Shown one piece after another: positions 28,403 to 33,738 of a DNA stretch of 59,802 bases (positions are counted from its first letter, which is position 1; each line of letters starts with the position of its first letter). Source of the DNA: Enterobacteria phage JenP2; sequence record NC_028997.1; one strand, written 5' to 3'. The notes beneath the pieces were generated by a model, which did no database searches, was not told the DNA's origin, and saw only the letters and a list, made by a program, of their open reading frames with translations. The translations under genes and the position numbers were made by a program.

Positions 28403-29356
28403 TTACTCGTCGAATAAATCCTGGAGACGTTCGTTGAACTTCCCATTGTGGTTAGCAAGAATCATAGCGTTGACCACACCATACGCCCATAAATTGTATG
28501 CAGCGCGCGATTCGTATATCGTTGAAAGTCGTTCGTATGTGAAACCTGACTCCTCTAAGTAGCGTAGAACGTTATTCTGTTCTATTTCTGAAAGGTTACA
28601 GATATGCTGCCCTTGATAGTGACGTGACGGAGATTTTTCAGACACCTGCATTGGACCCCACTTAGGAGTTTCAATAGCACCAAACGCCGCAGATTGAATC
28701 CAGGAGGATGAGTCACAGGAATACCACGGATAACGCTCCATAAGCGGACGGGACGTAATACCAAAACCATGGACTTTAATCTTAGCGCGTCCGCTACCGT
28801 CCACAAGGTGTTTATCCCATACCCTGTCCAACCATACCTGAAGTTGCTGCGTACTTGCTCCAACAAGACCACCGAGAGTGATATATTCATAATTTCGTAC
28901 ATAATGGTCCAGGTATTCAAAAGGTTCGCCTGCGTGGAAGCATGGTAAAGGTCTTACACCTCTGGCTTCCATCTCTTCCTGGTTGCGCCACGTTTGAAGT
29001 GGATCTCCGATACCATCGAGTACAGAAGCCATAAGCGAACCATCTTCTACACGGATGATATCTATGTTTCGTTGGATGTAATCACAGTATTCTTTAACAG
29101 ATAACGTAACTCCCAAAGTGTAAGCTGAGAACGCTCCTGAGTCGAGGAATATCTTGGCCCCATCGGCACGCATGGCATCAACATAGGATTGTTTTCCAAC
29201 GTAGTGCCAGGATTCAAGAATGTTTGGAATATTCTCGACAACACGTTTTTCTTGTTCGTTGAGTTTGACATAGCGGTTCATTCCTGGTTTATAGCTGTTC
29301 GTATATACGGCAGCCATATAAATCTGAAAGGTATAGTTGATATCTTGTCTGTGCAT
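28403..29356 (-). CDS. dpdA: DpdA-like 7-deazaguanine DNA transglycosylase (TGT superfamily)
   Basis: 317 aa; TGT-family LDSGAF motif; AGGTGA SD; adjacent to folE/queD/gat-queC/queE. Confidence 0.7.
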   Translation of the reverse strand: MHRQDINYTFQIYMAAVYTNSYKPGMNRYVKLNEQEKRVVENIPNILESWHYVGKQSYVDAMRADGAKIFLDSGAFSAYTLGVTLSVKEYCDYIQRNIDIIRVEDGSLMASVLDGIGDPLQTWRNQEEMEARGVRPLPCFHAGEPFEYLDHYVRNYEYITLGGLVGASTQQLQVWLDRVWDKHLVDGSGRAKIKVHGFGITSRPLMERYPWYSCDSSSWIQSAAFGAIETPKWGPMQVSEKSPSRHYQGQHICNLSEIEQNNVLRYLEESGFTYERLSTIYESRAAYNLWAYGVVNAMILANHNGKFNERLQDLFDE

Positions 29357-29369
29357 TGTTCACCTAACA

Positions 29370-29393
29370 AATAAGCGCCCGTAGGCGCTTATT
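29370..29393 (-). terminator. stem-loop between folE and dpdA (possible attenuator/terminator)
   Basis: 10-bp perfect inverted repeat AATAAGCGCC / GGCGCTTATT with a 4-nt loop; TTTGTT follows on the minus strand. Confidence 0.35.
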
Positions 29394-29425
29394 ATATTAA
29401 AGATAATGTATGATTCGCAAATCAG

Positions 29426-30055
29426 TTACTTTTTACACGCTTCAAGAAATTCCCGACGCCATGTATCACCAGTCACGTCCGGTAATACACCATCGCCCAA
29501 TGCAGTACGTCCGCGGAATGCTTTAGTGATGGTTGAGCTGCCACATACCTGTTTAACACCGCGCGACTCCATGCACATATGTTTTGCATCGATGTAGACG
29601 CACACAGCTTTCGGCTCTAAATGGTCACGGATGGCGTCCGCAATCTGGTTAGTTAGACGTTCTTGGACTTGCAAACGTCGAGCGAAAGCATCAACTACCC
29701 GAGATAACTTGCTGAGACCGACAATTTTTCCATTTGGAACATATCCAACCACCGCATGACCAATAATAGGAGCCATGTGATGCTCACAATGACTATATAC
29801 AGGGATATCGCGGACGATGACCATTTCATCGCAGTTTTCCCCACCATCTTCAAATGTCTTGAACAGGGATGCGATATCGACAGAATAACCCCCGAACCAT
29901 GTAGCATAAGCCTTAGCTACACGATCTGGAGTTTCTACTAAACCTTCACGAAGATCAGTAGTATCGTACCCTTCAATAACAGATAGAAGATTTCTTACAG
30001 CTACTTGAATTTGATGCTGATGAGATTTCAACTCTAAATAATTTACATTTGACAT
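29426..30055 (-). CDS. folE: GTP cyclohydrolase I
   Basis: 209 aa; conserved VYSHCEHHMAPI active-site motif. Confidence 0.9.
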   Translation of the reverse strand: MSNVNYLELKSHQHQIQVAVRNLLSVIEGYDTTDLREGLVETPDRVAKAYATWFGGYSVDIASLFKTFEDGGENCDEMVIVRDIPVYSHCEHHMAPIIGHAVVGYVPNGKIVGLSKLSRVVDAFARRLQVQERLTNQIADAIRDHLEPKAVCVYIDAKHMCMESRGVKQVCGSSTITKAFRGRTALGDGVLPDVTGDTWRREFLEACKK

Positions 30056-30081
30056 GGTTTACAGTTTCCTTGTGTGGTCAA

Positions 30082-32033: not shown

Positions 32034-32034
32034 A

Positions 32035-32793
32035 TTATTTACCTTCCTTAACCATTTCAATTTCACGCTCAACGGATACAATAATATCGTTGAGGTCTTC
32101 CAGTAAGTCTTTATGTCCACGTTCACCAGCACACAGCACTTTCTTCAGTGCATGTTGCATGGGCCCACTGGTTACATTAAATGCTTTAATTACATCGTAC
32201 ACGTCAACCCATACATCAATTTCAATTGGGCTACCGTTAATATCATGCGATTCAAAAGTCTTGATTTTGCGCATATATTTATTTGGACGTGGAGCTTTAA
32301 TATCCTGGATACAATCCGTGTCGATAAACGCTTCATTAATGGATACTTCCGGATCACCTTCTTTGTTACGATCAACTTTAAAGACGCTCGTAAGTACATC
32401 TTCCATGATACCAGCTAATTTCTGAGTAGATGTTGTGTACTTCTTCACATTTTCTGCTTCTTCTGCTGCTTTCTGACTTCTACTGACAGAAGTATTAATA
32501 CGCCATTTATAAAGTGCATTACTTGGAGGCGTCACATGCGTGTTGTAAACTGTCTTTAAACCCATGAGATCTTGTCCATCCATACCTTCAATAAAGACAG
32601 TAAGTGTAGGACTGCTATCATTCAAGACATCTACTACATATCCTTCTCGAATTACAGATGCAAGAGCTGCATGGGACGCAGCCTGTGAAGCTGTGGTCAC
32701 ATAATGTTTTACAAATCCGTCTTCATCGAACAGACACTGGTTTAACACATTTTCTGGAACAATTTCACCGAGTAATTGAACGTGCTTATTCAT
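32035..32793 (-). CDS. hypothetical protein embedded in the 7-deazaguanine cluster
   Basis: 252 aa; stop abuts the gat-queC start (translational coupling); no motif recognised. Confidence 0.55.
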   Translation of the reverse strand: MNKHVQLLGEIVPENVLNQCLFDEDGFVKHYVTTASQAASHAALASVIREGYVVDVLNDSSPTLTVFIEGMDGQDLMGLKTVYNTHVTPPSNALYKWRINTSVSRSQKAAEEAENVKKYTTSTQKLAGIMEDVLTSVFKVDRNKEGDPEVSINEAFIDTDCIQDIKAPRPNKYMRKIKTFESHDINGSPIEIDVWVDVYDVIKAFNVTSGPMQHALKKVLCAGERGHKDLLEDLNDIIVSVEREIEMVKEGK

Positions 32794-32905
32794 AATAATT
32801 TACCTTATTAGTTGAACATACCATGTCTTCTAGCGCGTTGACCGTCACCAGCATAATGGTCATTAGCCACAGCAATCATCCACGCGTTTTTGAATATGTA
32901 TAACT

Positions 32906-33670
32906 TCACTCTACACCTAAATATTTGTGGATCTGCAATTGCACGATGTAATTGTGCTTGATTGCATATTTAACGACAGCTTGGGCGTTTGCTTTATTAG
33001 CATCGTCGTCCTGTTCATCCATAGGTTGAAGATAAATGTTACCTTTAAAGTGTACAGGCGGACGTGCGATAAATGGTGTCGCACGGTGATCCAGTGCCTG
33101 CAACGGTAATCCATCTTCCTCGTTGACGTTTCCGCTTTTCATTACATATTTGAAAGCATCCGCTCGAGCGGAAACGCTAGGGTGAACCTTTGCTGCCTTA
33201 GGACTACATACTACCACACAGTTATAGTTGAGTTCACGCGGGATAGGCATAGTTCCGTTAGTTTCAACCTGTACACGATATCCTTTCATATCGATAAGGT
33301 AGTTGATAAAATTAACAACTTCAGGTTGACGGAAAGGTTCGCCACCAGTAATAACAACTAATTTAGTCTTGGCTTCACCAGTGACACGAACAATCTCCTG
33401 CCAAATATCACCGTGACTCATCTTCTTACGATTAGACGTATAGTTTGTATCGCAACCTGGGCATTGCAAGTTGCAACCAGCTAATCGGACAAATACGGCA
33501 GGTTGACCACAAAATGGGCCTTCGCCTTGAATGGTATGAAAAATGGAATGTACGTCAAGAATACCACGTTCACGAACTAACTTCTCAGGATCCTGAGTAT
33601 TAATAATTTTCATATGATTTCCAAATTTGGCTTGAGCCCAGTGGTGGGCGATAATGGCTTGTGCAAACAT
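32906..33670 (-). CDS. queE: 7-carboxy-7-deazaguanine synthase (radical SAM)
   Basis: Radical-SAM Cys motif CNLQCPGC; start set to the Met with a GAGG SD (the track ORF extends to 33694). Confidence 0.8.
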   Translation of the reverse strand: MFAQAIIAHHWAQAKFGNHMKIINTQDPEKLVRERGILDVHSIFHTIQGEGPFCGQPAVFVRLAGCNLQCPGCDTNYTSNRKKMSHGDIWQEIVRVTGEAKTKLVVITGGEPFRQPEVVNFINYLIDMKGYRVQVETNGTMPIPRELNYNCVVVCSPKAAKVHPSVSARADAFKYVMKSGNVNEEDGLPLQALDHRATPFIARPPVHFKGNIYLQPMDEQDDDANKANAQAVVKYAIKHNYIVQLQIHKYLGVE

Positions 33671-33738
33671 TTGAACCTCGGGGTAAGATAACAAAGGGGC
33701 AGTAAATGCCCCTTCTGAGTTTCCGAAGTGTCTACAGA

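Follow-up and report, generated by a model that had tools for sequence, protein, structure and literature searches.

The genome of Enterobacteria phage JenP2 (NC_028997.1; genus Nonagvirus, subfamily Queuovirinae) comprises 59,802 bp with a G+C content of 43.2%, and this whole stretch is the window considered here. Six co-oriented genes on its minus strand, at 28403-33670, encode DpdA, FolE, QueD, Gat-QueC, the product of a 252-amino-acid (aa) open reading frame (ORF) and QueE. We conclude, with a probability of about 0.9, that this region is the 2′-deoxyarchaeosine (dG+) DNA-modification cluster of JenP2, orthologous to gp03-gp08 of phage 9g. For JenP2 itself, this conclusion draws on gene content, gene order, motifs, protein fold and the identity or near-identity of the encoded proteins to those of 9g. 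The genes, together with the two domains of Gat-QueC, are as follows:

28403-29356, minus strand: dpdA, 317 aa, DNA guanine transglycosylase of the DpdA1 subfamily, assigned by identity to 9g DpdA
29426-30055, minus strand: folE, 209 aa, GTP cyclohydrolase I, type 1
30082-30615, minus strand: queD, 177 aa, 6-carboxytetrahydropterin synthase
30618-32033, minus strand: gat-queC, 471 aa from the ATG that gives MCSIFGV
31299-32033, minus strand: class II (N-terminal nucleophile, Ntn) glutamine amidotransferase domain of Gat-QueC, residues 1 to about 245, with GATase_7 and GlmS matches
30618-31277, minus strand: QueC ATP-pyrophosphatase domain of Gat-QueC, residues 253-471, Pfam QueC
32035-32793, minus strand: ORF without assigned function (JenP2 gp36, homologue of 9g gp07), 252 aa
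32906-33670, minus strand: queE, 254 aa, radical-SAM 7-carboxy-7-deazaguanine synthase

In the phage collection that was searched, the nearest genomes over the cluster were ESCO3 and 9g, with nucleotide identities of 95.7% and 93.4%, respectively. Gene set, order and orientation are identical in phage 9g, where the six genes, as in JenP2, adjoin those for a sliding clamp and a family-B DNA polymerase (PolB). DpdA is identical in the two phages, and the other five proteins are 87-99% identical. All six cluster proteins exactly match the JenP2 entries AKA60985-AKA60990 and YP_009216971-975, and their PHROG matches range from 1e-285 to 1e-54. Such a gene content lies far beyond chance. An earlier note, made from the nucleotide sequence alone, had described a tightly packed six-gene cluster of this kind beside the polymerase. 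All of its ORFs, their order and their location on the minus strand were confirmed, with intergenic gaps, counted from the dpdA side to the queE side, of 69, 26, 2, 1 and 112 nt. The motifs that it quoted are likewise all present (LDSGAF, CEHH, CRHLHGH, MCSIFGV, SGGMDS, the four C-terminal cysteines and CNLQCPGC). The ORFs lie where it placed them, but its right-hand end of the cluster, 33694, lies 24 nt too far, as queE is read from the ATG at 33670.

The three enzymes of the early pathway steps were assigned from profile searches, motifs and their 9g counterparts. FolE matches Pfam PF01227 (GTP_cyclohydroI) at 4.8e-62 (209 bits) and TIGR00063 with 191.3 bits, above the cutoff of 181.6, and carries the zinc motif CEHH at residue 90. 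The sequence equals that of JenP2 YP_009216971 and is 87% identical to 9g FolE, from which it diverges at the N-terminus, the JenP2 form being 5 aa longer. QueD matches Pfam PTPS (PF01242) at 1.5e-20, with 73.9 bits against a gathering cutoff of 22.4, and its best NCBIfam match is TIGR03367 (2.4e-17). Its CxxxHGH motif reads CRHLHGH at residue 24; the protein is 99.4% identical to 9g QueD and exactly matches JenP2 YP_009216972. QueE scores above the gathering threshold of Pfam Radical_SAM (2.1e-11) and carries CNLQCPGC (CX3CX2C) at residue 66. Its top five NCBIfam matches are all QueE models (2e-27 to 5e-21), it matches PHROG 2076 at 2.9e-69, and it is 97.6% identical to 9g QueE. The assignment of the three proteins to the FolE, QueD and QueE families in the earlier note thus agrees with their best NCBIfam matches, those of QueD and QueE being below the cutoffs. 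In 9g, folE, queD and queE each complement the matching E. coli mutant (PMC6884629).

The start of queE is most likely the ATG at 33670 and not the TTG at 33694, which would give a 262-aa form, because a GAGG ribosome-binding site precedes the ATG, the resulting 254-aa protein exactly matches JenP2 YP_009216975, in agreement with the 9g annotation, and a stable hairpin (33715-33693) has the TTG in its 3′ arm.

Gat-QueC, the product of 30618-32033, combines two enzymatic halves. Residues 253-458 match Pfam QueC at 4.5e-56 over 208 of the 210 profile positions, which places the protein in the QueC family as the earlier note had it; the score against TIGR00364 is 150.1, with a cutoff of 150.3. 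The PP-loop SGGMDS lies at residue 259, and the four C-terminal cysteines (SCYRNGDLHCGTCGPC) are spaced C-x7-C-x2-C-x2-C, as a zinc site. In the N-terminal half, GATase_7 is matched over residues 97-217 (1.3e-6; 28.9 bits against a threshold of 25 bits) and an NCBIfam GlmS-family profile aligns from residue 1. The protein begins with MC, the cysteine directly following Met1. BLASTP of residues 1-245 against the glutaminase domain of E. coli GlmS gave 2e-6, with the Cys, HNG and Asp-Ser/Thr motifs aligned. Exactly identical to JenP2 YP_009216973, the whole protein shares 95.1% identity with the 9g protein, for which production of G+, the amidine, has been shown (PMC6884629).

These features bear on the question of where the pathway ends. 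It could stop at dPreQ0, as in phage CAjan, or yield a mixture, if the Gat domain were inactive or poorly coupled. In favour of such an end point are the roughly 5% of Gat-QueC residues that differ from the 9g protein and the modest scores of the GATase Pfam matches. However, the Ntn nucleophile (the Cys after Met1) and the HNG and Asp-Ser motifs of the Gat domain all align with GlmS, PHROG 10428 is matched over the full length at 1e-285, and the fusion is kept across more than 300 near-identical database members. We therefore regard an end at dPreQ0 or a mixture as very unlikely. That Gat-QueC goes with dG+, as in the earlier note, and plain QueC with dPreQ0 is stated in the literature (PMC6884629, PMC8594841, PMC10484667).

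The insertion step would fall to DpdA. Over its 317 aa, the JenP2 protein is 100% identical to the characterised 9g DpdA (YP_009032326), and AHN84519.1 and AKA60985.1 share one sequence record. Base exchange on DNA has been demonstrated in E. coli for this identical 9g protein (PMC6884629). 9g DpdA keeps the catalytic core and the substrate-recognition residues of arcTGT and loses two of the four zinc ligands (PMC5699537), and a conserved His196 has been named for phage DpdA (PMC6884629). In JenP2, DpdA carries LDSGAF at residue 71 and matches PHROG 887 at 2e-98 and PHROG 7068 at 8e-18. When its AlphaFold2 (AF2) model was compared with the PDB by Foldseek, ranks 1-29 were all tRNA-guanine transglycosylases (TGTs; probability 1.0, TMq 0.45-0.48), with modest E-values (1.4e-4 for Z. 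mobilis TGT and 2.5e-4 for arcTGT 1j2b). The model thus points to a TGT-type (beta/alpha)8 barrel fold in DpdA. In an hhalign comparison of a 32-sequence DpdA alignment with E. coli Tgt, LDSGAF (D72) paired with TDSGGF, a pairing that was not significant. Its 32 homologues share at least 70% identity, which makes the alignment shallow, as the word-indexed search gave only close relatives among the best 120 matches listed. In all 32 homologues, D72, D114, H196 (VHGFG) and D215 are invariant. The DSG motif of TGT carries the general-base Asp (D102 in Z. mobilis), while the nucleophile is D280. We infer that D215 of DpdA is the equivalent of the latter.

Taken together with the experiments on 9g, these assignments would give the following pathway. 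FolE would convert GTP to H2NTP, from which QueD and QueE would lead to 7-carboxy-7-deazaguanine (CDG), and the QueC half of Gat-QueC would turn CDG into preQ0. DpdA, with its TGT fold, would act on the double-stranded DNA of the phage after replication, removing guanine and inserting the 7-deazaguanine base, and the amidotransferase half of Gat-QueC would supply ammonia for conversion of the nitrile to the formamidine of G+, either before or after insertion into DNA. As a result, about one quarter of dG would be replaced by dG+, and many restriction enzymes of types I and II would thereby be blocked.

What FolE, QueD and QueE do, that DpdA and Gat-QueC suffice, the level of about 25% dG+ and the resistance to restriction are all taken from work on 9g. 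There, dpdA alone inserts traces of dPreQ0 (0.03-0.3% of G), whereas with dpdA and gat-queC together in E. coli, dG+ reaches 9-18% of G in plasmids, which then resist EcoRI (PMC6884629). Gat-QueC is required for dG+, and dG+ still forms from this gene pair in a ΔqueC host, which indicates that Gat-QueC itself has QueC activity (PMC6884629). In 9g virion DNA, about 25% of dG is dG+ (PMC10516641, PMC10484667, PMC5699537), and all DpdA-dependent modifications are regarded as post-replicative (PMC10516641). Nonagvirus phages were resistant in vivo to type I and type II restriction-modification and sensitive to type III (PMC8594841). The modification has been measured in 9g, and by orthology the virion DNA of JenP2 itself would carry dG+.

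Several observations weigh against a dG+ cluster in JenP2. We found no published chemical measurement of JenP2 DNA, and JenP2 is absent from Table 2 of PMC6884629. FolE (87%) and Gat-QueC (95%) differ somewhat from the 9g proteins that were tested. QueD scores below the trusted cutoff of NCBIfam (TIGR03367, 63 against 89 bits), as does QueE (75-96 bits against at least 200). The AF2 model of DpdA is of medium quality (pLDDT 66, pTM 0.68) with an unreliable C-terminal third, and the hhalign alignment with E. coli Tgt covers the DSG motif only (E 0.023, probability 2%). Moreover, DpdA gave no significant match in Pfam (PF01702), NCBIfam, PADLOC, whose library includes bacterial Dpd models, or a phmmer sequence search of the PDB, so that its placement in the TGT/DpdA family by profile hidden Markov models (HMMs), which the earlier note had proposed as a check, was not obtained. 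This silence of the HMMs is a limit of sensitivity, expected for DpdA1, and not evidence against TGT membership, given the identity to 9g DpdA, the PHROG 887 match, the TGT fold match and the alignment of the DSG motif together with the invariant residues. The one published HHpred link to TGT that we found concerns DpdA2 (PMC6884629). With these points weighed, the gene assignments and the inferred function of the earlier note are upheld, and the function is the published one for Nonagvirus phages.

A different role for the same genes was put forward in the JenP2 genome announcement, where the region is described as a 'queuosine biosynthesis' operon that aids takeover of host transcription and translation (PMC4505120). 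The cluster would then raise queuosine (Q) in the tRNA of the host, or in tRNA used by the phage, and so tune translation. FolE, QueD and QueE have the same functions as the host enzymes of the tRNA-Q pathway (PMC6884629), as this role would have it. However, 9g dpdA, whose product is 100% identical to that of JenP2, fails to complement an E. coli Δtgt mutant, 9g gat-queC fails to restore Q in a ΔqueC mutant, and none of the surveyed phages encodes QueA, QueG or QueH (PMC6884629). In agreement with this, the JenP2 cluster ORFs have no match to the QueA, QueG or QueH families in Pfam or NCBIfam. The sole QueF matches are sub-threshold ones of FolE, a T-fold relative of QueF. As dG+ was, in addition, detected in 9g DNA, the tRNA-queuosine role is effectively refuted for 9g, and for JenP2 we consider it so improbable as to carry next to no weight.

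Among known systems, the JenP2 cluster is the same as that of 9g and the dG+ sister to the dPreQ0 cluster of Seuratvirus; it is an analogue, directed at DNA, of the archaeal pathway for archaeosine in tRNA and is distantly related to bacterial Dpd. The Seuratvirus CAjan has DpdA, FolE, QueD, QueC and QueE in the same order beside clamp and PolB, and the DNA of its FolE-QueD part is about 77% identical to that of JenP2. Unlike JenP2, CAjan encodes a plain QueC of 240 aa without Gat, additional small ORFs and a putative transporter of preQ0. The modified base in CAjan DNA is dPreQ0, at about 32% of G, and not dG+ (PMC6884629). The archaeal pathway for archaeosine in tRNA (arcTGT with Gat-QueC, ArcS or QueF-L) uses the same chemistry of preQ0, TGT-fold exchange and nitrile amidation, and phage and archaeal Gat-QueC fall into one cluster in similarity networks (PMC6884629). 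The phage substrate, however, is double-stranded DNA and not tRNA, and phage DpdA, compared to arcTGT, lacks the tRNA-binding domains C1, C2 and PUA in addition to the two zinc ligands (PMC5699537). In the bacterial Dpd systems (bDpdA, DpdB, DpdC and restriction genes), a TGT-like DpdA also puts preQ0 into DNA. There, bDpdA acts with DpdB, modifies less than 0.1% of G and belongs to a restriction-modification-like island that yields dADG (PMC6884629, PMC10516641). Phage DpdA, in contrast, has no PADLOC Dpd match, acts without a partner in E. coli and is associated with modification of about 25% of G (PMC6884629, PMC10516641).

The sixth gene of the cluster, which encodes gp36 and lies between queE and gat-queC, is 87% identical at the protein level to 9g gp07. 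The N-terminal region of about 165 aa is lineage-restricted, whereas the C-terminal region of about 75 aa (within 32035-32290) is a widespread phage module with the pattern NKYxRxIK...VDVYDV...HxxKKxLxxGxRGHKD. At least 4,556 clusters of proteins at 50% identity carry this module, stand-alone or fused to varied N-termini. The protein itself matches PHROG 18443, and five further PHROGs share the C-terminal module only; the six PHROGs are without known function. No match to gp36 was found in Pfam, NCBIfam, PADLOC or, by phmmer, the PDB. For the module, neither gp36 nor 54 other carriers gave a Pfam family, and a profile search of the PDB was also empty. The AF2 model of gp36 is poor (pLDDT 63), and Foldseek against the PDB returned no fold match for it. 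A relation of the module to DUF3310, SaV-like or T7 gp1.7 domains is unsupported: hhalign against T7 gp1.7 gave E-values of 0.37 and 0.18, no Pfam family was obtained, and fold matches in BFVD labelled DUF3310, SaV-like or nucleotide kinase were weak (E 0.02-0.26), those to DUF3310 and SaV-like proteins having a root-mean-square deviation of about 2.6 Å over 56 columns.

The location of gp36 might suggest that it is a sixth functional component, for instance a partner of DpdA or Gat-QueC in DNA targeting or regulation. Its slot, with a spacing of 1 nt, is kept in lineages where gp36 is only 40% identical, namely in more distant Nonagvirus-like contigs where such homologues fill the same position between queE and gat-queC, while at other slots in the cluster small ORFs come and go. 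The CAjan cluster, too, holds a protein with a gp36-type C-terminal module (AJT60525). On the other hand, dpdA and gat-queC alone yield high-level dG+ in E. coli (PMC6884629), gp36 matches no family or fold of enzymes or DNA-binding proteins, and its module is spread over the several thousand protein clusters counted above. In three of three distant carriers the neighbours of the module are early or replication genes, and neither a que gene nor dpdA lies within 10 kb; for this reason we rejected the module as a marker of deazaguanine pathways. A sixth functional component is therefore decidedly unlikely. The same holds for the particular form of an unrecognised dG+ accessory factor that sets the target guanines of DpdA or couples Gat-QueC to DpdA; if it were true, the C-terminal module would represent a novel domain for the handling of DNA or nucleotides. 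Most likely, gp36 is not a pathway enzyme. Because its module is very widespread, que and dpdA genes are lacking near the three distant carriers and dpdA with gat-queC suffices for dG+, we take gp36 to be either a passenger or an early protein that is unrelated, and leave a small chance that it is an accessory factor.

Directly downstream of dpdA in the sense of transcription lie the clamp and PolB genes, whose products are 99% identical to 9g gp02 and gp01, respectively. These genes and the intergenic elements of the region are the following:

25432-27405, minus strand: family-B DNA polymerase (PolB), PHROG 1252 at 5.8e-229
27402-28394, minus strand: sliding-clamp-like processivity factor, PHROG 947 at 4.6e-82
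29420-29391, minus strand: promoter-like TTGCGA-18-TATAAT, 10 of 12 positions matching the consensus
29390-29373, minus strand: GC-rich hairpin with U-rich tail, -16.6 kcal/mol, z -3.7
32794-32905, minus strand: spacer between queE and the gp36 gene, 112 nt, a variable slot among Nonagvirus genomes
33715-33693, minus strand: terminator-like hairpin with a 9-bp stem and U-rich tail, -14.3 kcal/mol, z -3.3

In the gap between folE and dpdA, the promoter-like site is followed by the hairpin with its U-rich tail and then by an AGGTGA ribosome-binding site. The second hairpin falls between queE and the gene upstream of it (33739-34563), so that two stable GC-rich hairpins (29373-29390 and 33693-33715) bracket the biosynthetic genes from queE to folE. 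The stable hairpin between folE and dpdA and the promoter-like site preceding it hint that dpdA may be transcribed with the clamp and polymerase genes and not with the biosynthetic genes. Since promoter-like sites in the region are no commoner than in shuffled sequence, we only infer such a unit. No Rfam family, preQ1 riboswitches included, matches the cluster.

A sliding comparison with 9g revealed dips of nucleotide identity at the 5′ end of folE, in the middle of gat-queC, in the gp36 gene and in the spacer between it and queE. These dips, at 29800-30190, 31190-31590 and 32390-32985, have 70-87% identity against a background of 93-99%. The bin of the queE-gp36 spacer is 70% identical to 9g, compared to 89-99% in its flanks, and the spacer has no Rfam match. 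In FritzHoffmann, two small ORFs occupy this slot, and in FritzHoffmann and other Nonagvirus genomes the dpdA/folE, queD/gat-queC and gp36/queE junctions hold additional small ORFs. The local dips indicate mosaic exchange inside the cluster.

Further observations concern other parts of the window, in which the EcoRI sequence GAATTC occurs 21 times overall. A 79-aa ORF (MVKMTFRSDD...) at about 35384-35623 on the minus strand, flanked by helicase and gp10-like genes, has a borderline match to Pfam ArdcN, the N-terminal domain of anti-restriction ArdC (E 1.4e-4; 22.5 bits against a cutoff of 22.6). It is missing from 9g (about 5% nucleotide identity in the bin), and FritzHoffmann has a small ORF in the slot. 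At 23390-24103 on the plus strand, a 237-aa protein without a Pfam match has a Gly/Trp-rich N-terminal third (GGLGGGFGG...GWGGRGGWGGG) and the C-terminal end CCGC. Two matches to the core of the 9g pac site (SRYCRCGGGRCG) lie 21 nt apart at 55129-55161 on the plus strand, with a chance expectation of 0.08. This pair agrees with the two 21-bp pac repeats of 9g and JenP2 (PMC5567051). The cryptic pac copy reported within the tgt/dpdA gene of 9g (PMC5567051) is not present in JenP2 dpdA. ARAGORN called a tRNA-Ala(UGC) at 25835-25908 (plus strand), within the DNA polymerase gene but antisense to it, which is probably a false positive, the Rfam tRNA model scoring below its gathering threshold.

The finding is correct and already known, since JenP2, its cluster and the dG+ predicted for it have all been described before. 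Incorporation of G+ was predicted for JenP1/2 in a review of 2016 (PMC5699537), Tsai et al. named the JenP2 Gat-QueC homologue and the gene cluster in 2017 (PMC5567051), and Supplementary Data 1 of Hutinet et al. (2019) lists five JenP2 pathway proteins (PMC6884629). What the present analysis adds is a corrected start for queE, the realisation that Pfam, NCBIfam and PADLOC all miss DpdA1 entirely, and one conserved ORF within the cluster that carries an abundant, uncatalogued phage domain. Hypermodification of DNA with 7-deazaguanines is an important strategy of phages against restriction and is now also known as a target of host defence, as the host glycosylase Dag1 exploits the modification and blocks phage 9g (bioRxiv 10.1101/2025.10.29.685425).

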